From the IMG/VR virus record IMGVR_UViG_3300049846_000828, positions 1-52,289 of that record: DNA of 52,289 bases; one strand, given 5' to 3'. The stretch comes from a virus (lineage: Duplodnaviria > Caudoviricetes). Positions 316-52,289 of this stretch are shown here, piece after piece; the first letter of the stretch is position 1; every line of letters starts with the position of its first letter. Both the position numbers and the translations under genes were made by a program. The notes under the pieces were generated by a model that saw nothing but the letters and a program-made list of their open reading frames with translations, was not told the DNA's origin and did not search any database.

Positions 316-334
316 CGACACAAAGGGCCGGGTC

Positions 335-493
335 ATGCGTCTGACGTACTGGAAGTTTCGCACACAAGCCGCAGCATTGAGCGTTCGGTATTCAGTGCTG
401 CGGATGGTGTGGCGGATCACCGGACGCGGACCTAGTGCCGAGCAACGACAGATGATGCTAACGCGCCTGCGTTGGCATGCGAACAAGAAATAG
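335..493 (+). CDS. Small basic hypothetical protein (last array ORF, MRLTYWKF...)
   Basis: ATG 4 nt after AAAGGGCCG (322-330). The stop abuts the terminal degenerate site at 496-504. Confidence 0.65.
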   Translation: MRLTYWKFRTQAAALSVRYSVLRMVWRITGRGPSAEQRQMMLTRLRWHANKK

Positions 494-564
494 AAAAAGG
501 CCCGCTTGGTTCGACTGAACCACTAGAGCACTTCGTAAGACAGCCAAATTAACTAACAAAATCA

Positions 565-620
565 TGGTGGGAAGTACCGGATTCGAACCGATGACATCTT
601 CGGTGTAAAAGAAGTGTTCC
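565..620 (-). other. attP: attP core: 3' portion of tRNA-Val(TAC)
   Basis: Minus strand reads GGAACA CTTCT TTTACAC CGAAG ATGTC ATCGG TTCGAAT CCGGT ACTTCCC ACCA: anticodon loop with TAC, T arm, acceptor 3' strand and CCA. The 5' acceptor strand is absent. It lies about 700 bp downstream of the integrase. Confidence 0.85.
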
Positions 621-4457: not shown

Positions 4458-4682
4458 TTACTGCAAAGACATTGCAGCGTCGTACTCGGCCGATGCCGCT
4501 TCGCTTGGCGTCAGGTCGTCATCGTACATTTCGCGCCAGCATTCGTGCCCGGTTTGCTTGATGTACTCGTGCGCCTCTTCGACAGATGAAACGACACGCT
4601 TTGCCAGTTCCCCCGGAAGCTCTGACAGCCACTTTTCAAATGGCACGTCGTTGCTCTTGATGGGCTCTAGTTCGCCACTCAT
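4458..4682 (-). CDS. Acidic hypothetical protein
   Basis: 74-aa ORF in operon order. Confidence 0.6.
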   Translation of the reverse strand: MSGELEPIKSNDVPFEKWLSELPGELAKRVVSSVEEAHEYIKQTGHECWREMYDDDLTPSEAASAEYDAAMSLQ

Positions 4683-4790: not shown

Positions 4791-5045
4791 TCACTGATCC
4801 ATCTCGCGGGCTTGTGCCGCCTTCTCGTTATCTTCCAAGGCGAACCGCTCGCAGAGCCAGTCCAGCGTCTGACGGCGAACCGCAGCGCCCTTGCGGCCTT
4901 CAAGCCGTGACATCTCTTCAATGCATGCCATGAGGCATTCCATCTGCGGGTCATAGCCGGCATAGAGGCTTTCGCCAGGAGCGGCTTCGTCTACCTTTGC
5001 GGCAGCATCTTTCCAGCCGCCTCGCAGTCTGCGAACAACGCTCAT
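4791..5045 (-). CDS. Hypothetical protein
   Basis: 84 aa with RBS. Confidence 0.6.
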   Translation of the reverse strand: MSVVRRLRGGWKDAAAKVDEAAPGESLYAGYDPQMECLMACIEEMSRLEGRKGAAVRRQTLDWLCERFALEDNEKAAQAREMDQ

Positions 5046-5059
5046 GTCACTTCCCCTTG

Positions 5060-5320
5060 TTAGCCGGGTACCACCTCAGGCACCTTCGAACGTTGGATAG
5101 CCTTCGTCCGTAGTTTGAATTTGGAAAGCGGTGTCCGTTTCGCTGTTGGGTCAGATAGACGGACTGGCACACGGGGTTCGGCGCTAGGCTCGCTGCTGAG
5201 CACGAGGCGCACAGCTTGTGGATCGAAGCGGTGGGAACCGCAGGTGTCGATTCTCTCTCCGGTGTCGGCGCGCTTGTTTGCATGGGTGGCCTCGTACTCT
5301 CCGCAAATCTGACACTTCAT
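5060..5320 (-). CDS. Hypothetical protein with CxxC motif
   Basis: MKCQICG...CGSH. Coupled to the exonuclease stop. Confidence 0.6.
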   Translation of the reverse strand: MKCQICGEYEATHANKRADTGERIDTCGSHRFDPQAVRLVLSSEPSAEPRVPVRLSDPTAKRTPLSKFKLRTKAIQRSKVPEVVPG

Positions 5321-5931
5321 GCCGCCATCTCCTGAAGCGTGACGGTCTTTGCATGAACTTCGGCTAGGAACTCTCTGACCTTGTCTTCGAGGTCCAGCAC
5401 CAGCACGTCATCGCGTTCGATCCGCTTCACGAACAGCCGCAAGTTTTCCGGCATGCGCGGGTCATAGCTCACGAAGTCGCACCACTTGCGGCCCGTGCAT
5501 GCCATCTGCCAGTGCATTTGCAGGACGTACTTCTCAGGCACCGCGCCCTTCAAAAGCGTCTCAATCTGTGTGGCCGTGCTCGGGCACTTGATCTCAACGA
5601 GGCCATCAGTCCCGACCAATCCGTCAGGGCTTGCGCCGCTCATCTCAATAGTTTCGTGCGGAACGAAATCGACAAGATCGACGGTCACGCCATGGAACAT
5701 CGAATAGACGGAACGCGCCTCTGCTTCGGTCGCTGTTCCCCATTCCATCGCGGCGTTTGTGTAGCTCTCAGCTACAACACCAGTCAGGCGTTCAGCTATG
5801 AGCTGGGCAGCGTAGTTGGCACGGGATGCGCCCCAACCAGTTTTCGTTCTGGCGCAGATGTCGGCCATGCGGGAGGCGGTAGCTTTGCCAAGCCGTAGTG
5901 CCTTCCATTCGTCGGAGCCTTGCTCAACCAT
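5317..5931 (-). CDS. YqaJ/lambda-type exonuclease
   Basis: QGSDEWKALRLGKATAS, AMEWG...EAEAR, GASPDGLVG...LVEIKCP, YVLQMHWQM..TGRKWCDFVSYDPR. Confidence 0.92.
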   Translation of the reverse strand: MVEQGSDEWKALRLGKATASRMADICARTKTGWGASRANYAAQLIAERLTGVVAESYTNAAMEWGTATEAEARSVYSMFHGVTVDLVDFVPHETIEMSGASPDGLVGTDGLVEIKCPSTATQIETLLKGAVPEKYVLQMHWQMACTGRKWCDFVSYDPRMPENLRLFVKRIERDDVLVLDLEDKVREFLAEVHAKTVTLQEMAA

Positions 5932-6673
5932 TGGAGCCCGCCTTGCGCTTGCGAGCGGATAGACCAGCAATGGCCTGAGCAATCTGCTTAGGGCTTAGGT
6001 CGTCAAGCTCACCGACAGAGTAGTGATTGCAGATCCAGCTCACGTCAGCCTTGGTTTCTGCAATCAGCGCATTGAGTGCTTCTAGCGTGTGCGTTGGTGA
6101 AGGTTGCTCGCCAGCGCGCCGGCCATCGTCATCTGTCGAAGCAGCAAGACCAGCCCCAAGCTTCAGCGTGTAGCGCTGCAAGTACGTTGCAGTGGAGCCG
6201 ATGCCCTGAATGGCGTTCTTGTTGCCGGAGTCATCGATCGGCGCATGCAACGTGTTCTCTTCTGAGTGGCCGTCGACATGCGAGATGATGCACGTGACCG
6301 ACAACCGGCCAGCGTCTTGTTTAGTGCGGAACCGATATGACAACCCGTGCTTGGCGAACACCGGATCAATCACCTTGGCAATCTCAGCCAAGTCTTCGTG
6401 CCGGTAGTTCGTCCGCCCTTTGGTTGACGTGAAATCGACTTGACGGTTTTTGAAGATCGTCGGGATTTCACCGCGTGCCGCTGCAATCGCTGCGTTGAAC
6501 GCACGCATGGCATTGCGTTGGTCGGTGCGCTCTTTCAGAGCCATTAGCCGCTCGAACTTGTCGACGTCGACGTTTGGGTTTGCTGCCGCCGACGCGATGG
6601 CTGAATCCATTGCAGCCGCTTCAACATCCATGGCGGATGGCAGCTTAACTACTACTGCGTTTCCGTCGCTCAT
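5924..6673 (-). CDS. erf: ERF-family single-strand annealing recombinase
   Basis: QGIGSTATYLQRYTL...DDDG ERF signature, next to the exonuclease. Confidence 0.88.
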   Translation of the reverse strand: MSDGNAVVVKLPSAMDVEAAAMDSAIASAAANPNVDVDKFERLMALKERTDQRNAMRAFNAAIAAARGEIPTIFKNRQVDFTSTKGRTNYRHEDLAEIAKVIDPVFAKHGLSYRFRTKQDAGRLSVTCIISHVDGHSEENTLHAPIDDSGNKNAIQGIGSTATYLQRYTLKLGAGLAASTDDDGRRAGEQPSPTHTLEALNALIAETKADVSWICNHYSVGELDDLSPKQIAQAIAGLSARKRKAGSNG

Positions 6674-7207: not shown

Positions 7208-7440
7208 GCTGCGACCCCTTCGATGAGCTTCATCTTCGGCATCAGCAGATCATCAATGATCGCGCTTTCAGTGGTGTCAGTGATCCGAGCCACAACACCA
7301 GGGCGGCGATCGTCAGTGACGTAGACCTCACAACCAGCATCGGCTTCCTTGTGGATCCGGAGGCCGTTTGGTGTGATGCGGATCAGAACCCGCTTGGAGA
7401 ATTGCACTGCCGGTTTGCGGCGGAGGAAGCGGTTGAGCAT
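7204..7440 (-). CDS. Hypothetical protein
   Basis: Start MLNRFLRR after GGAG. Confidence 0.55.
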   Translation of the reverse strand: MLNRFLRRKPAVQFSKRVLIRITPNGLRIHKEADAGCEVYVTDDRRPGVVARITDTTESAIIDDLLMPKMKLIEGVAA

Positions 7441-7445
7441 GGCGG

Positions 7446-7685
7446 TCACTCCGCCTCGATGGAGAACGATGCGCCAGCGTGCATTCCGCACATGATCATG
7501 CCGCGCCAAGGCGTCGTCTCAAGATCAACCAGCACCTCAACGTCGCGGGATCTCAAGAATGGCCGAGCGTGTTTGAGGATTTTCGTTTCAAGGATGTCCT
7601 CGGTGTCGGCTTGGATCGACACCGGGCCGACAGTGCGAGACCGGCCAATGCGGTTTTCATCAAAGGTGATTCTGTAATTTGGCAT
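7446..7685 (-). CDS. Hypothetical protein, first gene of the leftward operon
   Basis: 79-aa ORF downstream of the PL-like promoter. Confidence 0.6.
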   Translation of the reverse strand: MPNYRITFDENRIGRSRTVGPVSIQADTEDILETKILKHARPFLRSRDVEVLVDLETTPWRGMIMCGMHAGASFSIEAE

Positions 7686-7788
7686 CGGGTGGGCATCCCG
7701 TAGGGTTGAAAAGGATCACCGGCCGACTTGGGGAGTGGCTTCCGTCCGCGTGTCGTTGGGGTTAGCGGTGTCGGCCGGTGATGAGCAA

Positions 7789-7840
7789 AACGTAAATGAC
7801 AAGCTGTCATACGTCAACTGTAAAAATGATAAAATGTCAT
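7789..7840 (-). promoter_or_regulatory. PL-like promoter with two repressor operators
   Basis: -35 TTGACG (7817-7812), 17 bp spacer, -10 TACGTT (7794-7789). Palindromes ATGACAAGCTGTCAT (7796-7810) and ATGATAAAATGTCAT (7826-7840). Confidence 0.75.
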
Positions 7841-7936
7841 TCGGCGTGTGGAAAACTTGCAGACGCACGTATGCCGCCGCGATCGATTGTTGATCGCGAT
7901 CAAGAAGCTATCTTTCCGGTGAGTAAAAAGCGTGCT

Positions 7937-8227
7937 CTACTTTTGCTTGCGTAGATCGCGTATTCTAGTCGCCAGCGTATACGGCAGCCCAGATGGGTCA
8001 CCTCGATACAGCCAGTCTAGCGTTAGACCATAGACGTTGCAGAGCTTCATGGCGGCCTGCAAGGTCAGCAATCGCTTCCCGGTTTCAAACCGATTGTAAA
8101 GCGATTGCTCCAGACCCGCACCCTCACCAAAATCACGCTGATCTTCCACGCCAAGGGCCGCGCGCGACTCTTTCAGTCGCCGCGCCGTATCCATCGCATG
8201 GTCGCCTGAATCGAGAGGATCGTGCAT
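7937..8227 (-). CDS. Prophage repressor, short XRE HTH with no S24 peptidase domain (start 8227 or 8194)
   Basis: RLKESRAALGVEDQRDFGEGAGLEQSLYNRFETGKR...TLDWLYRG. Divergent from the Cro-like gene and flanked by operators. Confidence 0.85.
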   Translation of the reverse strand: MHDPLDSGDHAMDTARRLKESRAALGVEDQRDFGEGAGLEQSLYNRFETGKRLLTLQAAMKLCNVYGLTLDWLYRGDPSGLPYTLATRIRDLRKQK

Positions 8228-11322: not shown

Positions 11323-11825
11323 GATACGCCCTCGCAATCCTTGTAGCGATGACCCTTCCCGCATGCGCTCAGGAAGCCTCAACACCAATCTGGCCAGGAA
11401 CGCCTGAGTTCAAGCCGCTATGGTCCGAACCACCGAGGAAGAAACCGCAGGTTCGCGGCTGGGTCAGACATTCCCCGCCGGCACGGACCATCATCAAGCG
11501 GGATGTGGTGGCAAAGCCAGAGAAGATCGAAGCGCGCTGCAAGCCGTCTGTCGCGGCAACAGGTGACAGCGCCAAGAGCGAAACCGCAGCCAAGCTCGAG
11601 AGTCAGAAGGCATGGAAGGGGGAAGTCCAATGGCAGTACGGGAACATGTACCTCGACCTGCAAAACGCTGAAGACATTTCCTACCAGTGCGGTCCCTCAT
11701 CGGTTCCCCGCTACGGCGGCACGGTAGAAGCGACGGTCAGCAAGTTCCTCCCCATCGAAAGCATCACGTGCCGCGTCAAGGCCAGCCCGTGTGCCGTGCC
11801 GGTGCAGAAGGACAACGGGAAATGA
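11319..11825 (+). CDS. Exported Cys-containing protein (signal peptide or lipoprotein)
   Basis: MRYALAILVAMTLPACAQE N-terminus with four further Cys. Confidence 0.65.
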   Translation: MRYALAILVAMTLPACAQEASTPIWPGTPEFKPLWSEPPRKKPQVRGWVRHSPPARTIIKRDVVAKPEKIEARCKPSVAATGDSAKSETAAKLESQKAWKGEVQWQYGNMYLDLQNAEDISYQCGPSSVPRYGGTVEATVSKFLPIESITCRVKASPCAVPVQKDNGK

Positions 11826-13166: not shown

Positions 13167-13422
13167 CGGCTTTTACCAAATCAGCCATCGATTCGGCACA
13201 CTGCAACAACTGCGAGGCCCGCGACATTCGTCCGGGCCTTTCGCATTTCCAGATCCCGTCGCCACTGAATTGCCAGGCCCGGTTCTTGCCGACCGCGACC
13301 AACCAAACGCATCACTAAGGCGACGGGTACTCACTGGCTCTGTGGAGCCTCATGGTTATGCCCTGCGTTTCGGGCGGGAATTTGGTTTCAACCCATACCG
13401 CACATGAACGAACGGAGGGCCT

Positions 13423-15901: not shown

Positions 15902-17485
15902 ATGTCGCTCAGTCTCGACGACATCCTCGCCAGGCTTCAGGCCCTACCAGAAAACGAACGAAAGGAAGTCGTAAAGCTCGCGGACAAGGCAACCGCGGGA
16001 ATGCGCTGGATACCCAATCCAGGGCCACAGATGGACGCCTACGACTGCCAGGCCGATCAGTTGCTCTATGGTGGTGAGGCCGGTGGTGGTAAGACGGACC
16101 TCCTGCTCGGGCTCGCCTCGCAAGAGCATCGCCGGTCACTCCTGCTACGCCGCGTCAACAAGGACGTCTCGTGGCTGGTCGACCGGATGGCGCAGATCGT
16201 CGAAACCCGCGACGGCTACAACGGGCAGGACGATCGCTGGACGTTCCCAGATGGCCGGGTGATCGACTTCGCAGGTTGCCAGCACCCGGGCGACGAGCAG
16301 CGCAACAAGGGGCGGCCGAAAGACTTCATCGGCTTCGATGAGGCATCCGATTTCCTCGAGCAACAGGTCGAGTTCATTCTTGGCTGGCTGCGGTCGACGG
16401 TCAAAGGTCAGCGGTGCCGGGCGGTGTTCGCGACCAACCCGCCGACCTCAGTCGAAGGCGAGTGGATCGTTCGCTGGTTCGCCCCATGGGTAGACCCAGA
16501 CCATCCCCTCTACCCGTATCCGGTTGGAAAGCTGCTCTGGACGTGCCGCGGCAAGGAAGACGAATGGCTCTGGTTTGAGGAACCAGGCGAGCAGGAAGTC
16601 GACGGCAAGCCGAAGCCGACAATCAGCCGCACGTTCATCCGGTCTGGCCTTTCTGACAATCCAGACCTTGCCAATACGAACTACCGCAGCCAGCTCGAAC
16701 AGCTCCCCGAAGCGCTCCGCAGGCGCTACCTCAAAGGCGAGTTCACGGCGGGTTCGCAAGACGACGAGTTCCAAGTCATCCCCACCGAATGGATCCGGGC
16801 CGCCCAAGAGCGCTGGAAGGACGGCGACGGCGATGTGATGGAGACCATCGGCATCGACGTTGCGCAGGGTGGCGCCGACAGTACGGTCATGGCCCCTCGA
16901 TGGAAGGGCAAGACGGCAACGCACTGGTTTGACCGACTGAAGAAGTGGAAGGGTAGCGAAACCCCAGACGGAGCAACGGTCGCCGGCCTGTTCATTCAGG
17001 TCCAGCGCAACGCAGCTCAAGCCAACATCGACATGGGTGGCGGCTATGGCGGGTCGACCTTTGAGAAGCTGAAGGAAGCCGAGTTCTCTGTGTTCGGATT
17101 TGTCCCGTCTGAAGGGTCGGAAGCCCGGACCTCGGATGGCAAGCTCGGGTTCAGGAACAGGCGGGCCGAGGCCACGTGGCGTCTGCGGGAACTGCTTTCA
17201 CCGGAGAGCACGGAAACCGTAGCGCTACCGCCTGATGCCCAGTTGAGGGCCGATCTCGCGTCCTACCGCTGGAAGCTGATGAGCGGCGGAATCATTCAAG
17301 TCGAGTCCAAGGACGACATTCGCAAGCGTATAGGCCGATCGCCCGATGACGGTGACGCGGTGATCATTGCGATGGCCACGGGCTCAAAGCGAGTTCAGGC
17401 CCGCAAGAACGACCACAGATACCAGTCCCTGCAGCGTACCGCAGTCACGGGAAGATCAGGGATGATCAGGAGAGCATCACGATGA
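15902..17485 (+). CDS. terL: Terminase large subunit
   Basis: LYGGEAGGGKT Walker A, IGFDEA Walker B, ATNPP, GIDVAQGG and SPDDGDA nuclease motifs. Confidence 0.95.
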   Translation: MSLSLDDILARLQALPENERKEVVKLADKATAGMRWIPNPGPQMDAYDCQADQLLYGGEAGGGKTDLLLGLASQEHRRSLLLRRVNKDVSWLVDRMAQIVETRDGYNGQDDRWTFPDGRVIDFAGCQHPGDEQRNKGRPKDFIGFDEASDFLEQQVEFILGWLRSTVKGQRCRAVFATNPPTSVEGEWIVRWFAPWVDPDHPLYPYPVGKLLWTCRGKEDEWLWFEEPGEQEVDGKPKPTISRTFIRSGLSDNPDLANTNYRSQLEQLPEALRRRYLKGEFTAGSQDDEFQVIPTEWIRAAQERWKDGDGDVMETIGIDVAQGGADSTVMAPRWKGKTATHWFDRLKKWKGSETPDGATVAGLFIQVQRNAAQANIDMGGGYGGSTFEKLKEAEFSVFGFVPSEGSEARTSDGKLGFRNRRAEATWRLRELLSPESTETVALPPDAQLRADLASYRWKLMSGGIIQVESKDDIRKRIGRSPDDGDAVIIAMATGSKRVQARKNDHRYQSLQRTAVTGRSGMIRRASR

Positions 17486-17664
17486 ATGCCGGAGACATGC
17501 CCAAGCCATCAGCACCGGTTCGCGTTCCCTCCGAAAGCGACCCCGATGTGATCGCCGCACGCCGCAAAAAGATGCTCGATGAGATGCAGCAGCGGGACGG
17601 CCGGCGCTCGACTTCGCTTGCTGATAACTCGGCTCAGGCTTACTCGCGGACGACCCTCGGCTGA
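17482..17664 (+). CDS. Small pre-portal virion protein
   Basis: 60 aa ending TTLG, between terL and portal, as is common in these podoviruses. Confidence 0.65.
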   Translation: MNAGDMPKPSAPVRVPSESDPDVIAARRKKMLDEMQQRDGRRSTSLADNSAQAYSRTTLG

Positions 17665-19370
17665 TGGCTGACGACAACGCCGTCGAACTCATCAAGCGCG
17701 GTGACGCCAGGTTCTCCAAGCGGCAGACCTTGGACAACTTGCGCCAAGAGATCGCTCTGAACTTCGCTCCCCACTTGGCTGAATGGACAACCCCGCTCCA
17801 ATGGGGTGAGGACTTCGCCTCGCACTTGGTCGACGGCACGCCGCTGTTGATGGCCCGCGATTTCATCGGGCAAATCGGCTCCATGCTGCGTCCCTCTGGC
17901 AAGCAGTGGTTCTGGCACCGGACCTCACACGATGAACTGAACAACGACCGCAATGTCAGGGAATACCTCGACTGGCGCTCGACCCAGATGATGCGCATCA
18001 TGTCCGATGCCGTCACGGGGTTCCATCGCGCCACCAAGAACGCAGACGAGTTCTTCGGGTTGTTCGGGGATGCCGTGCTTTCGGTCGACACCTCAGAGCT
18101 ACACGATAGCCTGCGGATTAGCTCGTTCCACACCAAGGATTGCGTTTGGGCAATCGGTCCCGAGAACAAGCCTGACGTCATCACCCGCCGTGAGATGATG
18201 GCGGCACGAAACATCAAATCCCGCTTCCGCCAGCAAGGCGACAAGGTGCACGAGAAGGTCACGGAAGCCTGCGCCAAAGACGGCGAAGTGACCTTCGAGA
18301 TACGGCACGAGGTCATTCCTGCCGACGAATACGACCCCTACATCCGCAAGGCGGGACGCTCTGCCCGCAAGGATGGCTGGGTTTCGGTTTGGGTCGACGT
18401 CAACAATCGCACGGTCATTCGTGAGACCTGGCAGCGGACATTCAAGTACGTCATCCCGCGCTGGATCACGCTTCCCGGCAATCCCTATGCCATCAGCCCG
18501 GCTGCAACGATCGCGCTTCCAGACGCTCGACTGATCCAACAGCAGGCCATCGCAATCCTCGAAGCGGCTGAGAAGCAGATCAACCCGCCGCTGATTGCAA
18601 CCTATGACACGATCCGCGGGGATGTGAGCCTTCGTGGTGGTGACATCACCTGGGTTGATCGTGACTATGACGTTCGCAACGGGGCTCCGCTGACCCCACT
18701 TGAGCTTGGCAAGAACTTCCAGCTTGGCGTTGACAGCCTACTACGCACGGAAGCCCAGATCACTAGGGCATTCTTCCTCGACGTGCTCCGCATGCCTGAC
18801 ACCCGCCGCACCAAGTCGACGGCTGAGGTTCAGTTCCAGATTGACGAGTATGTCCGCGCTGCGCTTCCGCTCTTTGCCCCCATGCAGGCTGAGTACAACG
18901 ATCCTCTGCTCTATGAGGTCGACGCTCAGATCGAAGGTGCCGGCGGCTACAACGGCATGGAGAAGCCGCAAGAGCTGAAGGATCAGGAGTTTGTATTCGG
19001 CTGGGACAACCCGCTGACTGAGATGCTGGAACGTCAGAAGGCGCAGAAGGCATCTGAACTTTCGATGCTTGGCCAGACATGGGCAGCGCTCGAGGCGGCT
19101 GCTGCTCAATCGCCTTCATTGCAGCAGGTCGACACGGCCAAGGGCTTCCGCGAGTCTGCGATTGCGGTTGGTGTCGCTGGCTGGCTCAAGTCGGAAGATG
19201 ATGCTGCTGAATCTCAGAAGCAGGGCCAGCAAGCCATTGCCATGAACCAGATGGTAGGTGCCGCTCCGAACATCGCGCAGTTGATCGATAGCGGCGTCAA
19301 CGCGGCTCAGGTTACAGGTGAGATTTCACAGATGGCTGAGCCTGGTTATCCGGTGCTTCCCGGCGCATGA
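17664..19370 (+). CDS. Portal (head-to-tail connector, T7 gp8-like)
   Basis: 568 aa with GSMLRPSGKQWF, YVIPRW..LPGNPYAISP, ITRAFFLD and STAEV. Confidence 0.9.
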   Translation: MADDNAVELIKRGDARFSKRQTLDNLRQEIALNFAPHLAEWTTPLQWGEDFASHLVDGTPLLMARDFIGQIGSMLRPSGKQWFWHRTSHDELNNDRNVREYLDWRSTQMMRIMSDAVTGFHRATKNADEFFGLFGDAVLSVDTSELHDSLRISSFHTKDCVWAIGPENKPDVITRREMMAARNIKSRFRQQGDKVHEKVTEACAKDGEVTFEIRHEVIPADEYDPYIRKAGRSARKDGWVSVWVDVNNRTVIRETWQRTFKYVIPRWITLPGNPYAISPAATIALPDARLIQQQAIAILEAAEKQINPPLIATYDTIRGDVSLRGGDITWVDRDYDVRNGAPLTPLELGKNFQLGVDSLLRTEAQITRAFFLDVLRMPDTRRTKSTAEVQFQIDEYVRAALPLFAPMQAEYNDPLLYEVDAQIEGAGGYNGMEKPQELKDQEFVFGWDNPLTEMLERQKAQKASELSMLGQTWAALEAAAAQSPSLQQVDTAKGFRESAIAVGVAGWLKSEDDAAESQKQGQQAIAMNQMVGAAPNIAQLIDSGVNAAQVTGEISQMAEPGYPVLPGA

Positions 19371-20824: not shown

Positions 20825-21664
20825 ATGGCTCTCGGTGAATTTGTCAAATATCGAAGCGAGTTCGTCGACGGTTTCGCGCAGACCCAATCATTGCTGATGG
20901 ATCGCTGCGTCGAGGAATCGATGACTCAAGGCGGTTCGGTCGTGTTCGACATCGCTGATCTGTCCGGTGAACTGCCGGAACGCGGCGTTGACGGTCGTCT
21001 TGCCCGTCTCTCTGCCAACGACTCTCAGGTGACCGCCGTTCTCAAGGAATACGGTGGCCGCTTCGAGATCTCGGACTTCGAGAAGTTCAAGTCGCAGTCC
21101 GATGAGCGCTCCAAGATGAACAAGCGCATCTATGCGCGCGCAAATCGCCGCATGGATCGCGTCTACATCGCGGAACTCAACAACGCCTCGACGACGTGGA
21201 ACTCGGGCACGGCCATCACGGTCGACATCGCCACGATCCAGAAGATCATCGCGACGCTCGGCCAGGGCCAGGTTCCCATCAATCCGAACGACGTGACGTG
21301 GGTCGTTACCCCGCAGTTCTACGGCAAGCTGATGGGCCTCAACCAGTTCACCTCGGCTGACTGGATCAACTCGAAGCCGTTCGTCGGTGGCGCCGGCCAC
21401 TACGACAACACGCGCAAGATCAAGTCTTGGGCGGATGTCGGCTGGGTCTCGTCTCCGCTGCTGCCGGGTGTCGGCACCGCAACCGCAACGACGTTCATCT
21501 ACCACCGCAACGCCCTTGGCTGCGCGGCTCCGTCGAGCGCGATGATGTACACCGCGGGCTTCGACGACAAGGATCACCTGCACTACGCGGCAGGGACGAT
21601 CAAAGCCGCCGTGAAGATTCTTCAGCAGGGCGGAATCATCAAGGTCGTTACCAACGATTCCTGA
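20825..21664 (+). CDS. Major capsid protein
   Basis: Strong AGGAGG RBS and biased codons, after the scaffold. ANRRMDRVYI, TWVVTPQFYGKL and FIYHRNALG motifs. Confidence 0.88.
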   Translation: MALGEFVKYRSEFVDGFAQTQSLLMDRCVEESMTQGGSVVFDIADLSGELPERGVDGRLARLSANDSQVTAVLKEYGGRFEISDFEKFKSQSDERSKMNKRIYARANRRMDRVYIAELNNASTTWNSGTAITVDIATIQKIIATLGQGQVPINPNDVTWVVTPQFYGKLMGLNQFTSADWINSKPFVGGAGHYDNTRKIKSWADVGWVSSPLLPGVGTATATTFIYHRNALGCAAPSSAMMYTAGFDDKDHLHYAAGTIKAAVKILQQGGIIKVVTNDS

Positions 21665-45005: not shown

Positions 45006-45533
45006 GTGGCCAGCATTGGCTTTATCCCGACCAAGACCAGCATCGAGGTTCGCGAGCCCGACGGCGACGCCGGGACGATTCCGGCCTCCACCCCGTCCAA
45101 TGCGGGGTGCATGACGGCAGAGCAGGCCAAGCAGCTTTTGGAGCTTTGGCAGTGGCACCGGACGCATGTCGGCACTGGCGCACCGGTCATCATCGAGCAC
45201 GCGGTCGACACGTCGGACTTCGTCAACCGGCTCGAGCTCAAGGCCATGATTCAGCAGTTGCCGCGGGCGTTGGACGCCACCCCGCAGATCACGGCATTGC
45301 GCGCGCGCATCGATGATCTATCGCAGCGGCTCAACAGTGAAGCTCGATCAGCGCTTCCCGCGCCGGCAGATGGATCGATCAAGGCCGTCGACGAAGCCGC
45401 CCGGAATGTCCTTGACGTCGTTCTCGTTCAATACGAGGCGCTGGACGAGCGTGTCCGCCGTCTCGAGGGGATCATTGAAACGCTGAAGCAGGTTGCCGAG
45501 GCGAAGGCTGAAGAAGCAGCGAGGGCGGCATGA
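45006..45533 (+). CDS. Hypothetical coiled-coil protein
   Basis: GTG after GGAG, coupled to the lysozyme gene. Confidence 0.65.
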   Translation: MASIGFIPTKTSIEVREPDGDAGTIPASTPSNAGCMTAEQAKQLLELWQWHRTHVGTGAPVIIEHAVDTSDFVNRLELKAMIQQLPRALDATPQITALRARIDDLSQRLNSEARSALPAPADGSIKAVDEAARNVLDVVLVQYEALDERVRRLEGIIETLKQVAEAKAEEAARAA

Positions 45534-46294
45534 ACCTTTCAGACAAGGGCCTCGACTTCATCGTCAGCTTCGAAGGGCTTCTAAAGAAGCTGCCCGATGG
45601 CAGGTACATCGCGTACCGCTGCCCGGCAAACGTGGCCACCATCTACGCAGGCTGCACCGAGGGCGTCACTGATGGAATGATCGTGACGGAGGATGAGGGC
45701 AAGGCGATGTTCCGCCGTGAACTCGCCAAGCACGAAGCTGCCGTCCGCCGTCTCGTGACCGTCGATCTGACACAGAACCAGTTCGATGCGCTGGTGTCGT
45801 TCTCCTATAACGTCGGGGCCGGAGCGCTCCAGAAGTCCACCTTGTTGAAGCACTTGAACAAGGGCGATTATGCCCGTGCCGCTTCGCACTTTGCCGACTT
45901 CAAGAAGGCGGGCGGCAAGGTGCTAAAGGGTCTCGTCCGTCGCCGCGCCGCTGAAGCTGCGCTGTTCATGGATGACGATGAGCCGACCGACATGGTCCAG
46001 AAGGTGGACAAGCCTGATACCAAGATGAAACTGGCTGAGGTGGTCGGCAAGGTTGCGCTTCCGACCGGGGCTGTAGCTGGCACCGGAGCGACGGTCGCGA
46101 CCAAGGAACCAGCAAAGATCGACCCCAAGGCTGCAATCGCCAAGGGCAAAGAAACTCGCGAAGTCATTGAGCAAGCCAAAGACCTCGGGATCTTCGCTCG
46201 AGATATGGGCAAGTGGGCCATGGGCGACGGCATGTTCATTGCGGGCGGGATTCTAGCGGCGGGTGCCGCGGCTTGGTGGTGGAGCAAGCGATGA
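45530..46294 (+). CDS. GH24 phage lysozyme (endolysin) with C-terminal TM segment
   Basis: FEG...AYRCPANVATIYAGCT, QNQFDALVSFSYNVG, GLVRRRAAEAALF and tail FIAGGILAAGAAAWWWSKR. Confidence 0.92.
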   Translation: MNLSDKGLDFIVSFEGLLKKLPDGRYIAYRCPANVATIYAGCTEGVTDGMIVTEDEGKAMFRRELAKHEAAVRRLVTVDLTQNQFDALVSFSYNVGAGALQKSTLLKHLNKGDYARAASHFADFKKAGGKVLKGLVRRRAAEAALFMDDDEPTDMVQKVDKPDTKMKLAEVVGKVALPTGAVAGTGATVATKEPAKIDPKAAIAKGKETREVIEQAKDLGIFARDMGKWAMGDGMFIAGGILAAGAAAWWWSKR

Positions 46295-47359: not shown

Positions 47360-47527
47360 TTATGGCTTGGCCGGCGGCCAAGTAAATGACTTGCGGCACT
47401 TGCGCGACGCGACCCACTGCGCTTTCTCCGGCGTGCACCCTTTGCGAACGTAGTGCACGGACCATGCAATCTGGCGCAGCCGTTCGTTGTCGTTGCAAAC
47501 GTACGATAGCAGCATGTCTGGAGGCAT
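47360..47527 (-). CDS. 55-aa hypothetical protein
   Basis: Hand-translated MPPDMLLSYVCND...; fills the operon gap. Confidence 0.45.
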   Translation of the reverse strand: MPPDMLLSYVCNDNERLRQIAWSVHYVRKGCTPEKAQWVASRKCRKSFTWPPAKP

Positions 47528-47540
47528 GGCGTATCGGGTC

Positions 47541-47744
47541 CTAGTTTGTCACAAACTTCATGAGATTGACCGCCGCGCTATCGACGATCGACTGCTGGCA
47601 GGTCGAGTGCCGAACATGCCACGACCCGTCATCCAGCAGCACAACGCAAACGACAGCACGCATGCGATCTGCATCGACCGCTAATGTCTCAATCACTTCT
47701 GCCGGCGTCGTCGATGCTGACCCAATTCGCACGATGTCTGCCAT
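47541..47744 (-). CDS. Hypothetical protein
   Basis: 67 aa with AGGGG RBS. Confidence 0.6.
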   Translation of the reverse strand: MADIVRIGSASTTPAEVIETLAVDADRMRAVVCVVLLDDGSWHVRHSTCQQSIVDSAAVNLMKFVTN

Positions 47745-47839
47745 CGTCTACCCCTGTTCCTTGTGTTTGCAGAGACAGCACCGCCGACCGGGGCGGCACC
47801 AGATCGTGAAGCATATGAACCGCAGCATCTTGGTCTCCA

Positions 47840-48067
47840 TTATTGAACTCGTTCGAGGATGCCTGTGTGCGGGCACCATTGGTAGCCATCTGGCGCAAGC
47901 ATGTCGGGTTGCGATTGGGAAAGCGTTTCAACGATCTGCCTTAGCTGCGGATCTGGTGGTGACGGCATGTGCTGCAAGCAACGCCACCGCCCCGGCTGCC
48001 CTTTGGCGTTAACGCGGTACAGGTCGACGCCATCCCTAGGCTTCCCGCCGCACGTCTCGCACTGCAT
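47840..48067 (-). CDS. Small zinc-finger-like protein
   Basis: CETC...LYRVNAKGQPGRWRCLQH. Confidence 0.65.
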   Translation of the reverse strand: MQCETCGGKPRDGVDLYRVNAKGQPGRWRCLQHMPSPPDPQLRQIVETLSQSQPDMLAPDGYQWCPHTGILERVQ

Positions 48068-48078
48068 CTGCCTCTCCC

Positions 48079-48276
48079 CTATTCCTCATCTGCCATGCGT
48101 TCAATGGCAGCATCCCAGTGAATGTAGTCACCGGCTCGCGGCAGCAGCAGGTTCATCGCCGTATCCGTCATCATCAGGCGATCCGGCAGATGATAAAAAA
48201 TCTGGTAGCAGCACCATCCGAGCGACCATGTCACCCATCCGTGCCAGCCTTGCCACCGTGACCAGTCCATAGTCAT
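48079..48276 (-). CDS. Trp-rich hypothetical protein
   Basis: GAGG RBS, directly downstream of the resolvase-like gene. Confidence 0.55.
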   Translation of the reverse strand: MTMDWSRWQGWHGWVTWSLGWCCYQIFYHLPDRLMMTDTAMNLLLPRAGDYIHWDAAIERMADEE

Positions 48277-48283
48277 GCCTCCT

Positions 48284-48862
48284 CTAATCTCGCCCGCCAC
48301 GCGGGCCGAACTCGTCATAATATCGGTCTTTCGACCATCCCGGCGGGCCTGCCGCAATTGCGGCTTTCACGCTCTTATTGCGAAGATCGAACCACGCAAT
48401 CCGCGCCGCTTCGACTTCGCCGGAAATGTCACGCGGCTTGCGCCCGCCCTTTAGGCCATTCTTCGCGCCCGAGTGACCGCGCGCCGCCGACGCCAGACGC
48501 TCAATCACTTCCTGCACGAACAGGTCGCGCTGCTCTGGAATGGCAGTGTGCCAGCGCTTCGCCAGATCATACGCCGATGCGCCCCGCGCTTCGATAGCGC
48601 GCAAGGTTTTCCAGAACATTGATCGCGGCTTGTCGTTCGTGCGTGACTTCGCGGGCACTAGCAGGTGGCCTTGCGTCACCACCAGCACATCGCCACGGCG
48701 AAGCGATGCCACGACATCGGCAACCGTCACGCCGGTCTTTTTACTGACCTCGTACAGTCCGCGCTCTGGCACGCCGAACTCGCGAAGCAGCTTCACTTGC
48801 GCCGAAGCCGGGAAGCGCTTCATGTCGTGAGCAAGTCCGCGTTTCTGTCTTTCTGTGAACAT
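48284..48862 (-). CDS. Degenerate serine-recombinase (resolvase/invertase)-like protein lacking canonical catalytic motifs
   Basis: AQVKLLREFG, SLRRGDVLVV, IEARGA and GLKGGRKPR align with resolvase features. GYARVS appears as GLAHDM and DRLxR as HLLVP. A candidate TTGATC-N17-CATTCT promoter suggests a leaderless start at 48862. Confidence 0.6.
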   Translation of the reverse strand: MFTERQKRGLAHDMKRFPASAQVKLLREFGVPERGLYEVSKKTGVTVADVVASLRRGDVLVVTQGHLLVPAKSRTNDKPRSMFWKTLRAIEARGASAYDLAKRWHTAIPEQRDLFVQEVIERLASAARGHSGAKNGLKGGRKPRDISGEVEAARIAWFDLRNKSVKAAIAAGPPGWSKDRYYDEFGPRGGRD

Positions 48863-48962
48863 GTTTCGCAGAATGCACGAAGCCGGTTGCGCGATCAAGT
48901 AGAATATGCTTTATTCACACCATGAGCGGCGACGTTGCCGCGTGAGATTAGAGGCCGGAACG

Positions 48963-49529
48963 ATGGCGCGTCACGATTGCGATATCTGCCGAGGATCGGG
49001 GACAGTCAGGCTTCCCGTCTATCATCGCGTATCTGTGCGATATGAATCGGACAGCAAAATATCGCCGTCATCTGTTGAGACGGCGCGCGCCTTTCCGTGC
49101 CCGGAGTGCGCACCAAAGGTTGATCACGAGCGCATTGCACTTGTCTACAGTGAGGTTCAAGCGTCCGCTCAATACAGCGCAGAACCCGAATATCAGGCTG
49201 CGATATTGCGTGATGCTGCCCATGCAATCGTCGATGAATTGCTGCGAGGCGGCTACATCAAGCAGGTCGTGGGCGATCTCGATAATATGTCTATGAGTAA
49301 CCCGATCCGGTGCACGCTTGGCGTCGTGTCGCCGTCCGTTGTTGCGACGATGGAAGCTAGGATTGCAGAGCGCCAGGGCGAAGTTGCGGATCGAGTGGCG
49401 GAAGAGGCTAAGCGCTTGATCGGTGTTTGGGGGTCGCACTACGGGCACACGACGTTAACAAAGGATCAAGCGTGCCGTTCTGTCTCTGAGGCGCTTGACG
49501 CCATCAAATTGAAGATGAAGCAAAAGTAG
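48963..49529 (+). CDS. Array ORF 1, DnaJ-like zinc-finger motif
   Basis: CDICRGSG...CPEC, starting after degenerate site TAGAGGCCG. Confidence 0.75.
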   Translation: MARHDCDICRGSGTVRLPVYHRVSVRYESDSKISPSSVETARAFPCPECAPKVDHERIALVYSEVQASAQYSAEPEYQAAILRDAAHAIVDELLRGGYIKQVVGDLDNMSMSNPIRCTLGVVSPSVVATMEARIAERQGEVADRVAEEAKRLIGVWGSHYGHTTLTKDQACRSVSEALDAIKLKMKQK

Positions 49530-49545
49530 AAAAAGGGCCGGTCGC

Positions 49546-49770
49546 ATGACAAACGAGCAGCGCAAGCTACTGGAGCCGTATGCGATGTTGCTCGCGCGGG
49601 CGCATCAGCGCATTGTGGACATGAGCGACGAGGATTTGGCCGCGATGGATGCGGCGATCAAGTCGGCAACATCGTCAAACTGCTGGTATGCAATCTACCA
49701 AGTTGCGAAGTTGCTGGAAAACGAGGTCGCTGGGCAGAAGTTGCTTCGCGCGCGCAAGCCAGCAGCATAA
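49546..49770 (+). CDS. Array ORF 2, hypothetical
   Basis: 74 aa after site 49532. Confidence 0.75.
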   Translation: MTNEQRKLLEPYAMLLARAHQRIVDMSDEDLAAMDAAIKSATSSNCWYAIYQVAKLLENEVAGQKLLRARKPAA

Positions 49771-49798
49771 AGAACGAACAGCACAAAGGGCCGGGACG

Positions 49799-50074
49799 AT
49801 GGCAAGCATGAAGGTGTCACTGGACGGCCTGATGGTCGGCGTTGAGCGTGCCCTGCGGTCAAGCAAGGAAGATATGGCGTGCGCCTATGCGTACTCGCTT
49901 ATGGAATTTGCTGAAAATCTTCGCCTCGTTAAAGAAGGCAAGGCGACGCCAGATGAGCTATTCGCCCTTTACACGATGGGCGAGAAGGAAGGCGACGGCC
50001 TGACGAAACGCGTCGAAAAGCGGTACTACGACTGTATGCAAGATGAACCGGAAGATGAGGACGAGGCGGCATGA
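49799..50074 (+). CDS. Array ORF 3, acidic hypothetical
   Basis: MASMKVSLDG after site 49785. Confidence 0.75.
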   Translation: MASMKVSLDGLMVGVERALRSSKEDMACAYAYSLMEFAENLRLVKEGKATPDELFALYTMGEKEGDGLTKRVEKRYYDCMQDEPEDEDEAA

Positions 50075-50349
50075 CGGACGTTCCATCGGAAGACGCGACA
50101 ACCGCCTACCGGGCGACGTTCGAGCAAGAGATTGACGATATCGCGCGCCGCATCGTTGCGTCTGTCACGCCAGCCCCACACCCGCATGCGGGTGGCATTC
50201 TGTTGCTTTGTGCGACCCGCTTGATCGGCCACCTGTCTGGTCATCTGGATAACGTCCGCGCCGCCACTGGCAAAGATCGGTATGGCGCGGAAGCATCGAT
50301 GCACGAGGCGTACAGACTTATTGATGCCGGACGCCCCCAACCGAATTGA
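50071..50349 (+). CDS. Array ORF 4, hypothetical (ATGA-coupled to ORF 3, no site)
   Basis: 92 aa with GAGG RBS. Confidence 0.7.
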   Translation: MTDVPSEDATTAYRATFEQEIDDIARRIVASVTPAPHPHAGGILLLCATRLIGHLSGHLDNVRAATGKDRYGAEASMHEAYRLIDAGRPQPN

Positions 50350-50367
50350 TCAAGAAAGGCCGGGACG

Positions 50368-50625
50368 ATGCTTCGCAAAGTAGATTACAGCAAGCCGATC
50401 ACGGGCGACGACATTCGGGAGATTGTCGCGTTCCTGGCGAGCCTCGACATGCACACCTCGCTAGAGGCGTGGCAGTATCCCGGCCAGACGCTCTTGCGTG
50501 CTGCCGACGATATCGACCGCTTGCGCACTCTTGAGGCTCGCGATGCGAACGCCGCCGCGACGCTTGCCGATGCTTACGGGCCGGACTGGCGCGGCGTGCT
50601 GAAATCAATCACTCCGCAAGTGTAG
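50368..50625 (+). CDS. Array ORF 5, hypothetical
   Basis: 85 aa after site 50354. Contains RAADDIDRLR. Confidence 0.75.
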   Translation: MLRKVDYSKPITGDDIREIVAFLASLDMHTSLEAWQYPGQTLLRAADDIDRLRTLEARDANAAATLADAYGPDWRGVLKSITPQV

Positions 50626-50641
50626 AAAAAGGGCCGCACAC

Positions 50642-50929
50642 ATGACTGATACAAGCGGGGAAGCCGTTATTGAAGACGGACACATTGTGATCCGGTTTCG
50701 GATCGATGCGCTACCAACGGCGGTTGCCGGTGCCGCAGCGCTTGGCACACTTGACGCGCCGTTCAAGGTGACGAACGCGGAAGCGTTTGCAAAAGACCTC
50801 GTGTCGCAACTCAACGAGGAAGACGAGCAGGGCACAACGATGATCCATCGGATGATGGACGAAGCCTTTAATCAGGCAGCTGACCAAGGCGCGTTCGGAA
50901 CCAGTATCAGCGACGACGACGAAGACTGA
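50642..50929 (+). CDS. Array ORF 6, acidic hypothetical
   Basis: 95 aa after site 50628. Contains FKVTNAEAFAKDLVSQLNEEDEQGTT. Confidence 0.78.
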   Translation: MTDTSGEAVIEDGHIVIRFRIDALPTAVAGAAALGTLDAPFKVTNAEAFAKDLVSQLNEEDEQGTTMIHRMMDEAFNQAADQGAFGTSISDDDED

Positions 50930-50947
50930 GGAAAAAGGGCCGCCCGG

Positions 50948-51232
50948 ATGCCTGCCGCGTACTACAGCTACGACGAAGCGAACAAGCGCAAGCGGCTATG
51001 GAACGGCGCTTGGTCAAAGGTGATTTGGGTTGATGACGCGGGAGCGAATGTGCTCGCTGTCATTCACTGGATGGGCGGCGGCTACAAGGTTGTGGGGCGC
51101 TACCTGCGTGATGAAGATCGACGGGCGGTGGCGCACGCGGAACGGTGCTCCGCAGACGGATACTGCCCGACGAATGCCGATGACGGCGACGGCTACCGCA
51201 AGGCATTGGCTGACGAACGCAACCGCACATAA
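50948..51232 (+). CDS. Array ORF 7, hypothetical
   Basis: 94 aa after site 50934. Confidence 0.72.
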   Translation: MPAAYYSYDEANKRKRLWNGAWSKVIWVDDAGANVLAVIHWMGGGYKVVGRYLRDEDRRAVAHAERCSADGYCPTNADDGDGYRKALADERNRT

Positions 51233-51244
51233 AGGGCCGCGTGC

Positions 51245-51467
51245 ATGAATGACGATCTGAAAGCGGCCGCGCGTGAAGGCTTCACCGAAGGCTGGCGAAG
51301 CCGCCCATATGGTGCCGATGCTTGGCGCGCTGGTTCATCCGCTGTGCGCCGTCGCCCTTGTTGGCGAGGAAGGTCTTTGCCGCATGCCGTATGACGCGGT
51401 TAAGAACATTCGCCGCAGCGACGTTGGCGACCGCATCATCCGTCGCTTGATTGACGCTCACGCTTGA
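51245..51467 (+). pseudogene. Array ORF 8, apparently frameshifted near 51293-51300
   Basis: MNDDLKAAAREGFTEGW(R) starts after site 51231. A different frame (EAAHMVPMLG...IDAHA*) ends at the next site. Confidence 0.55.
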
Positions 51468-51485
51468 ACACAAAGGGCCGCACGC

Positions 51486-51725
51486 ATGAAATTGAAGTGC
51501 ACCATTCGCAGCGATGCATTCGTCGAACCGTGCGACGGCTTGCGAAAACTCACTGGGTCGGCAGTCGATCTGGTGCAGTACACCAACTTCAAGACGATGC
51601 AACCGTCGCGCTCGTTCGTCACAATCAAGAGCGGCGATTTCCGCAAGCAAGGGCTTGTGGCGAACTTCTGCCCGGTGTGCGGCGAGCGGATCAATCATGC
51701 AGTCGAAGGCGCCCACGCGGCGTGA
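51486..51725 (+). CDS. Array ORF 9, zinc-ribbon protein
   Basis: C...PC...NFCPVCGERI after site 51472. Confidence 0.78.
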   Translation: MKLKCTIRSDAFVEPCDGLRKLTGSAVDLVQYTNFKTMQPSRSFVTIKSGDFRKQGLVANFCPVCGERINHAVEGAHAA

Positions 51726-51742
51726 ACACAAAGGGCCGGGCT

Positions 51743-52168
51743 GTGGAGCAAGACTGGAAAGTGCTACGCGAAGCCGCCCGTCTAATCGGTTGCGCTGCTC
51801 ATGCGGCTTACATGTGCACACTGCGCGGCGACGTTCCTGCGGGGTCGTTAGACAATTTCAAACCCCAGGTCGGGCGCATGGCCATGGAGGTAAGCTCGTT
51901 CTACCACGCTTTTGATCCGGCTGGTCCGACGCGCGGTTACGACCCGCTCAACTCGATTGGCGTACTGGATCGGATCGCGTGGGAGCCTGTGATGACTCCG
52001 GAGAAATGGAACGAAGGCGTCGAGGACAAAGCCGATTGGGAGACGCCGTCGAATGAGTGCGTTTACTATCTGCGGACGCTTGATGGGCGAGAGTTTCGGT
52101 GGACGAACAGTAAGCTGATCCTTGTCCCCGACACGCCGCAATTTAAGGCAATGAACAACCGCACATAA
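51743..52168 (+). CDS. Array ORF 10, hypothetical
   Basis: GTG 4 nt after site 51730. Contains YYLRTLDGREFRWTNS. Confidence 0.75.
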   Translation: MEQDWKVLREAARLIGCAAHAAYMCTLRGDVPAGSLDNFKPQVGRMAMEVSSFYHAFDPAGPTRGYDPLNSIGVLDRIAWEPVMTPEKWNEGVEDKADWETPSNECVYYLRTLDGREFRWTNSKLILVPDTPQFKAMNNRT

Positions 52169-52289
52169 AGGGCCGGACCAGTGACCAAGCTCACCGAAGA
52201 GTGTCAGCTAAACGAGCGTGAGCTTGCGAGGGCATCAGAAATCGCCAACGCAACATTGCGTGCGACTGCTGGCCAGCAGCGCGGCATGC
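52163..52289. repeat. Second copy of the 127-bp terminal overlap
   Basis: Identical to 1-127. Confidence 0.95.

Follow-up and report, generated by a model that had tools for sequence, protein, structure and literature searches.

The circular IMG/VR virus record IMGVR_UViG_3300049846_000828, which was analysed over its whole length and is called the window here (52,289 bases with a direct terminal repeat of 127 bp), carries across its circular junction an array of 12 co-oriented small open reading frames (ORFs), most of which are preceded at a short and nearly constant distance by one sequence element, AAAGGGCCG. The array starts beside a divergent ORF of 204 aa, and a tRNA-like sequence and a gene of a tyrosine integrase lie just beyond its other end (Table 1). 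In a sequence-only reading this arrangement had been taken for a gene-capture or shuffling platform, punctuated by a short recombination core that doubles as a ribosome-binding site (RBS). The description of the ORFs as short, unrelated and co-oriented was confirmed, as they are not paralogues of one another (best pairwise BLASTP E 0.068), and none of the 12 proteins reached a Pfam cut-off. Gene 10 has 15 homologues in the protein collection (43-83% identity), and therefore at least some of the array ORFs are real genes.

The genes of the array are tightly packed, with gaps between stop and start codons of -4 to 28 nt. The promoter scan returned 0 sigma-70-type sites inside the array, and the terminator-like sites found there (4, with 4.4 expected) are at the chance level, which fits one polycistronic message that would start from the intergenic gap at 48899-48962; no sigma-70-type consensus was found in this gap. 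The comparison with Rfam gave no match in or beside the array. One gene model had to be corrected: the gene behind the copy at 51231 (gene 8) is read in two frames, only the second of which ends just before the next copy of the element. This could reflect a frameshift mutation, an assembly indel, a programmed shift or an overlap of two genes. Neither frame has a family match, and coverage from one of the sequencing runs considered below (X2) is absent at 51340-51659, in the region of this gene.

The window contains 10 exact matches to AAAGGGCCG, all of them on the + strand and 0 on the reverse strand, while 100 dinucleotide shuffles of the same sequence gave a mean of 0.37 copies and a maximum of 3, so that 0/100 reached 10. 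The copy at 5-13 is, via the terminal repeat, the copy at 52167-52175, which leaves 9 unique exact copies; once this duplicate is removed, the exact scan bears out the number of nine copies in about 3.7 kb that had been counted by eye. All of them lie between 49532 and 330 across the circular junction, in one 3.7-kb operon. Three degenerate copies accompany them, the 8-mers AGAGGCCG at 48950 and AAAGGCCG at 50355 (not at 48949 and 50354, as was given before) and the one-mismatch copy AAAGGCCCG at 496. A start codon, ATG or GTG, follows 9/9 exact copies, at an offset of 4 nt in two cases and 5 nt in seven, and opens ORFs of 49-141 aa; behind both 8-mer variants an ATG stands 5 nt downstream. 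The measured offsets thus agree with the earlier statement that eleven starts lie 4-5 nt behind the site, and the copy at 496 does close the array with no ORF behind it. The site is present before 11/12 genes, the exception being gene 4, whose ATG overlaps the TGA of gene 3. The preceding stop codon falls inside the element in 2 cases and otherwise 2-14 nt upstream of it. All nine positions of the element, together with an A at position -2, are invariant in 9/9 copies, and the adjoining positions are variable.

The element is confined to this operon, which the sequence-only reading had proposed and the scan of the genome now supports. When one mismatch was allowed, 21 matches were found in the window against 14.2 expected, which is the chance level outside the array; of the 11 one-mismatch copies only that at 496 is within it, and none of those outside stands before an ORF of more than 48 aa that is not nested in another gene. 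No copy precedes the terminase, the portal or other virion genes, and all copies belonging to the array are within 48950-504. Other genes of the phage use varied purine-rich sites that lack GGGCCG, for example at 20825, 5924-6673 (-), 17482, 12228 and 19602, again as had been noticed at first sight. Since the RBSs elsewhere in the phage vary, the element is not simply the best ribosome-binding site of the host. As a separate observation, on the reverse strand at 13233-13241 the one-mismatch form AAAGGCCCG is followed 5 nt on by an ATG that opens a 48-aa ORF, which may be chance or a stray family member.

Table 1. Features of the small-gene array and of other parts of the window (positions count from the first base of the window).
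Feature	Position	Strand	Remarks
Divergent ORF, 204 aa, candidate regulator	48284..48898	-	called as 179 aa in the protein collection, from an internal Met
Divergent intergenic region, presumed operon promoter	48899..48962	+	first degenerate copy AGAGGCCG at 48950-48957
Gene 1, 188 aa	48963..49529	+	CxxCxGxG-type cysteine pairs; no Pfam or PHROG family above threshold
Exact copy	49532..49540	+	stop TAG 2 nt upstream; ATG after 5 nt
Gene 2, 74 aa	49546..49770	+	
Exact copy	49785..49793	+	
Gene 3, 91 aa	49799..50074	+	relative in run X4 ends in a TAA overlapping a full copy of the element
Gene 4, 92 aa	50071..50349	+	only gene without the element; ATGA overlap with gene 3
8-nt variant AAAGGCCG	50355..50362	+	5 nt before ATG
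Gene 5, 85 aa	50368..50625	+	
Exact copy	50628..50636	+	
Gene 6, 95 aa	50642..50929	+	PHROG families of unknown function
Exact copy	50934..50942	+	
Gene 7, 94 aa	50948..51232	+	
Exact copy	51231..51239	+	overlaps TAA of gene 7
Gene 8, two frames	51245..51467	+	51245-51394 (49 aa); 51273-51467 (64 aa)
Exact copy	51472..51480	+	
Gene 9, 79 aa, zinc-ribbon-like	51486..51725	+	phrog_4030 (unknown function)
Exact copy	51730..51738	+	4 nt before GTG
Gene 10, 141 aa	51743..52168	+	
Exact copy	52167..52175 (=5-13)	+	overlaps TAA of gene 10
Gene 11, 98 aa	19..315	+	begins at 52181 in the repeated end
Exact copy	322..330	+	4 nt before ATG
Gene 12, 52 aa, basic	335..493	+	
Orphan one-mismatch copy AAAGGCCCG	496..504	+	no ORF behind
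tRNA-Val(TAC)-like 3′ fragment, candidate attP core	560..614	-	80-82% identity over 51-55 nt to sampled Pseudomonadota genomes
Tyrosine integrase, ordinary phage type	1300..2355	-	PF00589, E 1.3e-20
YqaJ exonuclease	5317-5982	-	
ERF	5924-6673	-	
Large terminase	15902-17485		
T7-type portal	17664-19370		PF12236
Endolysin	45530-46294		

The best explanation of these features is a module common to almost all cistrons of a single polycistronic operon, which comprises small accessory or early genes, and AAAGGGCCG is probably a new translation-initiation module of the start-associated sequence (SAS) type. The 5′ half of the element, AAAGGG, would pair with the 3′ tail of 16S rRNA and serve as a moderate Shine-Dalgarno (SD) element 7-8 nt before the start codon. 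Inspection and a duplex calculation, both with a generic anti-SD tail as the probe, indicate that AAAGGG can pair with it and CCG cannot, and CCG is as invariant as the SD part. The calculated duplexes with this generic probe range from -4.9 to -10.6 kcal/mol. Two statements of the sequence-only reading are supported by these data: that the site would double as an RBS, in so far as its position 4-5 nt before the starts is where an RBS belongs, and that the fixed 3′ half is not explained by SD pairing. Ribosomes that terminate on the upstream cistron would already be at the site, which may lead to translational coupling and to similar amounts of the products. The invariant 3′ half, that is CCG followed by G or C, is most likely read by a trans-acting factor, which would switch the translation of the whole operon together. 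No local hairpin shared by the junctions was found.

The proposed reader of the 3′ half is best considered together with a second phage. A two-motif pattern scan of 2.9 million viral contigs led to the viral contig G007 (30,198 bp, estimated to be 57% complete), in which a six-gene operon of small ORFs (locus L032, 10193-11556, reverse strand) carries 3 exact copies of the element and 3 copies with one or two mismatches. The distance from copy to start codon is 3-6 nt throughout this row of six small ORFs, the stop codons abut, and the operon begins beside a small divergent ORF (11636-11803, + strand). The proteins of this operon have no Pfam match, and a tblastn search with the window ORFs of at least 50 aa gave no match in G007. 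That unrelated genes stand behind this 9-mer at an equal spacing argues that the motif is a property of the expression system and not of the cassette. The presence of an identical 9-mer in two unrelated phages also speaks against a phage-specific recombination core and a phage-encoded reader, and for a shared factor, most simply one of the host. A host factor is thus favoured as the trans-acting reader because the window phage and the G007 phage have no detectable protein in common; the part of G007 outside the 57% could hold a shared gene. By eye, a hairpin with a T-run follows the last gene of the G007 operon.

Further occurrences of the element are sparse. The same scan of the viral contigs also gave locus L031, with 2 copies, one of them before a start, and in genome contigs the first two-motif scan returned 24 loci, which is about chance by a rough estimate; on inspection none of them proved to be a gene array. 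A second such scan of the viral contigs, made with another spacing, found 3 loci, none of them an array, and therefore the motif is rare among viral contigs. In five bacterial genomes (22.8 Mb), chosen for holding a pair of copies and thus a loose control, there were 17 motif-plus-ATG matches in all. Two bacterial loci with several copies, L041 at 7662-7990 (4 copies, spacing 80/160 nt) and L036 at 7268-7722 (6 copies, 51-159 nt apart), look like tandem repeats, not gene arrays.

The genes of the array can also be followed without the element. Among 12 loci with homologues of gene 10, 11 lack the 9-mer, and in the remaining one a single copy lies at a distance of 3.9 kb from the homologue; the motif does not move together with gene 10. 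In L011 and L012 a homologue of gene 10 (49% identity) and the gene that follows it share a different leader, an SD-like part plus a GC-rich part, directly before the ATG (two copies only, at 1339-1352 and 1775-1790 in L011 and the same in L012). In the metagenome contig L018 the homologue of gene 10 and the next gene each stand behind the same leader of about 40 nt that ends at the ATG (4467-4511 and 4927-4969) and is unrelated in sequence to the motif of the window; judged by this arrangement, the L018 leader is another putative array-specific start-associated module. Since the homologues of gene 10 stand behind other leaders, uniform leaders look like a property of each array. According to the sequence-only reading, a merely start-associated signal would be betrayed by a fixed gene order in related phages, or by homologues that lack the site elsewhere together with breakpoints that do not fall at it. 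Homologues without the site, one half of this test, were found for gene 10 at 11/12 loci.

The closest known counterpart of the element is the SAS of Cluster K mycobacteriophages, asymmetric repeats of 13 bp that share one orientation, stand 3-7 bp ahead of start codons (ATG in most cases), often include the upstream stop codon and are limited to non-structural genes (Pope et al., 2011; PMC3203893). As described there, they combine an SD core with conserved positions that are unable to pair with 16S rRNA, and they were contrasted with stoperators. By the account of a survey of 188 genomes, which calls for functional tests, the function of SAS was untested as of 2025 (PMC12699233). The likeness is extensive: a short asymmetric repeat in one orientation (here 9 unique exact copies and 0 on the reverse strand), at 3-7 nt before starts in the mycobacteriophages and at 4-5 nt here, with the upstream stop often inside; non-structural genes only in both, and a place before genes of different families, which is seen here through G007. 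An SD-like core next to equally conserved positions that would not pair may be common to both as well, the pairing here being judged with a generic anti-SD sequence.

There are also differences. The element has 9 nt (AAAGGGCCG) as against a 13-nt consensus, and its SD part is weaker (AAAGGG, without GGAG). The 17-bp inverted repeats of the extended SAS, an accessory feature at about half of the SAS sites, are absent here. All copies in the window are in one 3.7-kb operon, whereas SAS are spread over half a genome, and the identical core is common to a phage with no detectable shared gene. As far as the G+C content of 57-63% and the tRNA-like attP, nearest to tRNA-Val of sampled Pseudomonadota at only 82% identity, allow a judgement, the host does not belong to the actinobacteria. 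A start-upstream repeat in a phage of a Gram-negative host is known from the Citrobacter phage Mordin, in which a 26-bp repeat upstream of the starts of 8 hypothetical genes was likened by the authors to SAS (PMC4611695). That repeat, which the source describes in one sentence, is longer and unrelated in sequence, and Mordin is a virulent Felix O1-like myovirus. A full-text literature search for AAAGGGCCG returned, among the matches listed, no title on phage or bacterial translation signals.

Several points weigh against the view that the element is a translation signal of the SAS type. No RNA run is listed among the sequencing runs that hold this DNA. The pairing argument depends on a generic anti-SD sequence, and the CCG half still needs a reader, for which a trans-acting factor is postulated. 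As a translation signal the orphan copy at 496 would be useless, since no gene follows it. The similarity between junctions extends over 16-31 nt and thereby reaches the final codons of upstream genes that are unrelated, and variants of the left and right flanks reassort around the core. On its left side the copy at 496 has the same stop-plus-A-rich flank as those at 49532 and 50628. Such long junction similarity with reassorted flanks looks like the trace of a recombination history. Finally, relatives of genes 3 and 7 were found in run X4 with other neighbours and with similarity that ends at the junction.

These observations are the ground of the strongest alternative, a recombination linker like that of the PeSL cassettes of T4-type phages, in which the junction would be kept mainly by gene swaps within and between phages, through homologous or microhomology recombination that retains the RBS. 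The contigs of four public runs from three studies, one of them probably the source of the window, were compared over 47500-52289. In run X4, which belongs to a different study, the genes related to genes 3 and 7 lie on three short contigs. In the case of gene 7 (5 differences in 313 nt) the gene upstream is another one, and the similarity begins at the stop codon of that gene, 7 nt before the motif. The relative of gene 3 follows a different upstream sequence, with similarity that begins inside the motif, and ends in a TAA that overlaps a full copy of the motif, where the window has the motif-less gene 4. The genes for ERF and YqaJ in this phage would help such swaps, and Rad52-like recombinases have been linked to relaxed homologous recombination (PMC3945230). 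G007, which has the junction core in common with the window and no genes, may be counted on the same side. PeSL themselves are a precedent, repeated expression signals of a composite promoter-plus-terminator type that mediate gene shuffling, including through mini-circles (Arbiol et al., 2010, PMC2839356; Comeau et al., 2014, PMC4122927). The window resembles them in having a repeated expression signal between small ORFan genes of a plastic region, and perhaps in swaps between relatives that are bounded by the repeats, as the three short contigs of X4 suggest. It differs in that there are 0 promoter-like sites and no stem-loop, the repeat of 9-30 nt would act in translation, and neither mini-circles nor insertions or deletions were seen.

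The same comparison of contigs also speaks against the linker. Across 47500-52289 no joints, insertions or deletions were found in the contigs of the four runs, and contigs drop rare forms. Within the reach of their short contigs, runs X2 and X3, from the second study, show the same gene order. Among the 12 loose ends listed, out of 13, 8 are inside array genes (49937 in two runs, 49975, 49981, 50055, 50094, 51047 and 51126), 3 are ends of X4 at or near junctions and 1, at 47758, lies upstream of the array. Moreover, phages usually show mosaic breakpoints at gene boundaries even where no special site is present, and homologues of gene 10 stand elsewhere behind other leaders. The core is invariant in 9/9 copies although its flanks vary, a sign that it is itself under direct selection, as a mere crossover point would not be. 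Altogether, it is unlikely that gene swapping is what mainly maintains the junction. The capture or shuffling that was originally proposed stands in part: relatives of genes 3 and 7 do occur in X4 as motif-bounded units with other neighbours, but neither joints or indels in the contigs of the four runs nor a candidate for a dedicated recombinase were found. With the SAS-type translation signal as the preferred reading, a junction of 9-30 nt that recurs a dozen times would be a ready crossover point for homologous or microhomology recombination, as a by-product and not as dedicated capture; this secondary role is plausible but unproven.

Another possibility is that the element acts as DNA. A repressor that binds the asymmetric 9-mer at the junctions could block elongation in the lysogen, in the manner of the stoperators of Cluster A mycobacteriophages (PMC9283540; contrasted with SAS in PMC3203893), and the 204-aa protein, whose gene adjoins the operon and has a weak resolvase-like profile match, is a possible candidate for this DNA-binding regulator. 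Like stoperators, the sites are short and asymmetric, lie in one orientation relative to transcription and occupy short intergenic gaps. However, stoperators are genome-wide and not phased to starts, whereas the sites in the window are confined to one operon of 3.7 kb and keep a phase of 4-5 nt to the start codons, for which an operator has no need. G007 has the 9-mer and no homologue of the 204-aa protein in its 30 kb, which represents an estimated 57% of that genome. An operator array is for these reasons doubtful.

More doubtful still is a signal for RNA processing or decay, at which a sequence-specific RNase or an RNA-binding protein would cut or protect the message and so inactivate early messages or separate them by cistron; RegB of phage T4, which cuts in early Shine-Dalgarno sites, offers a comparison. 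The motif is strand-specific, operon-specific and placed at the RBS, with a conserved half outside the SD part, as such a signal would be. Yet no nuclease gene was recognised in the array with Pfam and PHROG, and there is no match to a known RNA family.

It is very improbable that a dedicated recombinase cuts and joins inside GGGCCG to insert units of site plus gene, as in an integron: the array does share with integrons the co-oriented, unrelated and promoterless small genes, each with its copy of the site and with a closing site, and a tyrosine recombinase gene 0.8 kb beyond the distal end, but this integrase scores far below the integron-integrase cut-offs and lies beside a tRNA-like attP at the promoter-distal end, no inverted repeats or hairpins of the attC type are present at the junctions, the contigs of the four runs show no joints, and a phage with a related integrase (G006) has no array between its lysis genes and its integrase. 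To our knowledge, a 9-bp asymmetric site without inverted-repeat arms is unlike the known recombinase cores.

The identity of the array as an integron was rejected, as there is no IntI-type integrase and no attC hairpin. In Pfam the integrase matches only the general Phage_integrase family, and against the integron-integrase models it reaches 37.4 bits for TIGR02249 (cut-off 265) and 36.6 bits for NF011946 (cut-off 435). The gaps of at most 28 nt leave no room for attC-type sites. The sequence-only reading had itself noted that IntI and attC hairpins are missing and that this is not a classical integron, and this agrees with the scores. G006 has in common with the window the integrase (52% identity), the endolysin (84% over 174 aa) and the 204-aa protein (38%), and it contains no exact copy of the motif.

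Taken further, the preferred reading would have the 9-mer define a translational regulon that crosses phage lineages, in which an RNA-binding factor of the host, or a widely shared one of phages, reads GGGCCG beside a weak SD site and switches whole operons of small accessory genes on or off. Kept identical by unrelated phages of that host, the junction would also be a docking point at which such phages could exchange single small genes by short-homology recombination; in this extended form the proposal is tentative and on balance unlikely. If true, gene shuffling would here depend on a translation signal and not on a recombinase site. SAS have been known since 2011 and are documented almost only in one cluster of mycobacteriophages, and the window provides a useful case, since the core is compact and perfectly invariant, belongs to one operon and is shared letter for letter with a phage that has no gene in common. 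This combination separates the signal from the genes and points to a factor outside the phage. As a test bed the element is simple, with 6 SD-like letters and 3 without an explanation among its 9 nt. It could reveal whether motifs of this kind act as translational switches and whether the turnover of small accessory genes is driven by uniform junctions. Functions in anti-defence and host takeover are frequent among such genes. In annotation, the motif settles where 11 small ORFs start, points to a probable frameshift in one of them and cautions against taking such arrays for integrons.

The 204-aa protein encoded beside the presumed promoter had been called resolvase-like. It has only 5 homologues besides itself, none of them with a Pfam domain, and gave no match in Pfam, PHROG or NCBIfam; none of the 6 family members matches a Pfam resolvase. 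When a profile of these 6 family members was compared with the PDB, the top 5 matches were all gamma-delta resolvase, at weak E values of 0.18-0.56. The alignment covers resolvase residues 17-121 only, with the region of the catalytic serine outside it, and the 6 family sequences have no invariant serine in the N-terminal 30 aligned positions. The weak but consistent likeness to the gamma-delta core, with no aligned catalytic serine, suggests a putative DNA-binding protein derived from a recombinase. The AlphaFold model was too poor (mean predicted local distance difference test score, pLDDT, 54.9) and was not used.

The phage itself is an uncultured temperate podovirus-like phage. This follows from its gene set and from its remote relation to cultured phages, whose portals share at most 25% identity among the matches listed (25 records). 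A search of the array DNA against 50,697 phage records gave no match, and tblastn of genes 6, 9 and 10 against cultured phages gave 0-3 remote matches that did not help with the gene context. A search of viral contigs found no close relative of gene 1, gene 7 or the 204-aa gene, and one of genome contigs found none of the integrase. Relatives of the portal are 6 loci of 62-73% identity, all fragments; the stretches fetched from them and 4 whole records contain no copy of the motif and probably stop short of the array region.

At the distal end, the proposal that the array adjoins attP and thus becomes the end of the prophage gains support from the tRNA-Val-like fragment and the tyrosine integrase just beyond the array, and a tRNA-type attP next to the integrase is plausible from the sequence. 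ARAGORN found no whole tRNA in the window and called a tRNA-Val(TAC) at the matching place in 3/3 genomic loci that were checked. The fragment has no Rfam match, and exact 42-nt and 28-nt tRNA-like cores gave 0 matches. BLAST of the attP region against 301 Pseudomonadota genomes, 251 genomes of one order and 5 genomes of other phyla gave no match better than 82% over 55 nt or 89-91% over 32-37 nt. A 73-aa ORF at 726-947 on the + strand, which separates the tRNA-like site from the integrase, is essentially nothing but a ClpX-type C4 zinc finger (PF06689, E 8.8e-16). It is a stand-alone version of the ClpX domain that binds substrates and adaptors, and it could interfere with the ClpXP of the host.

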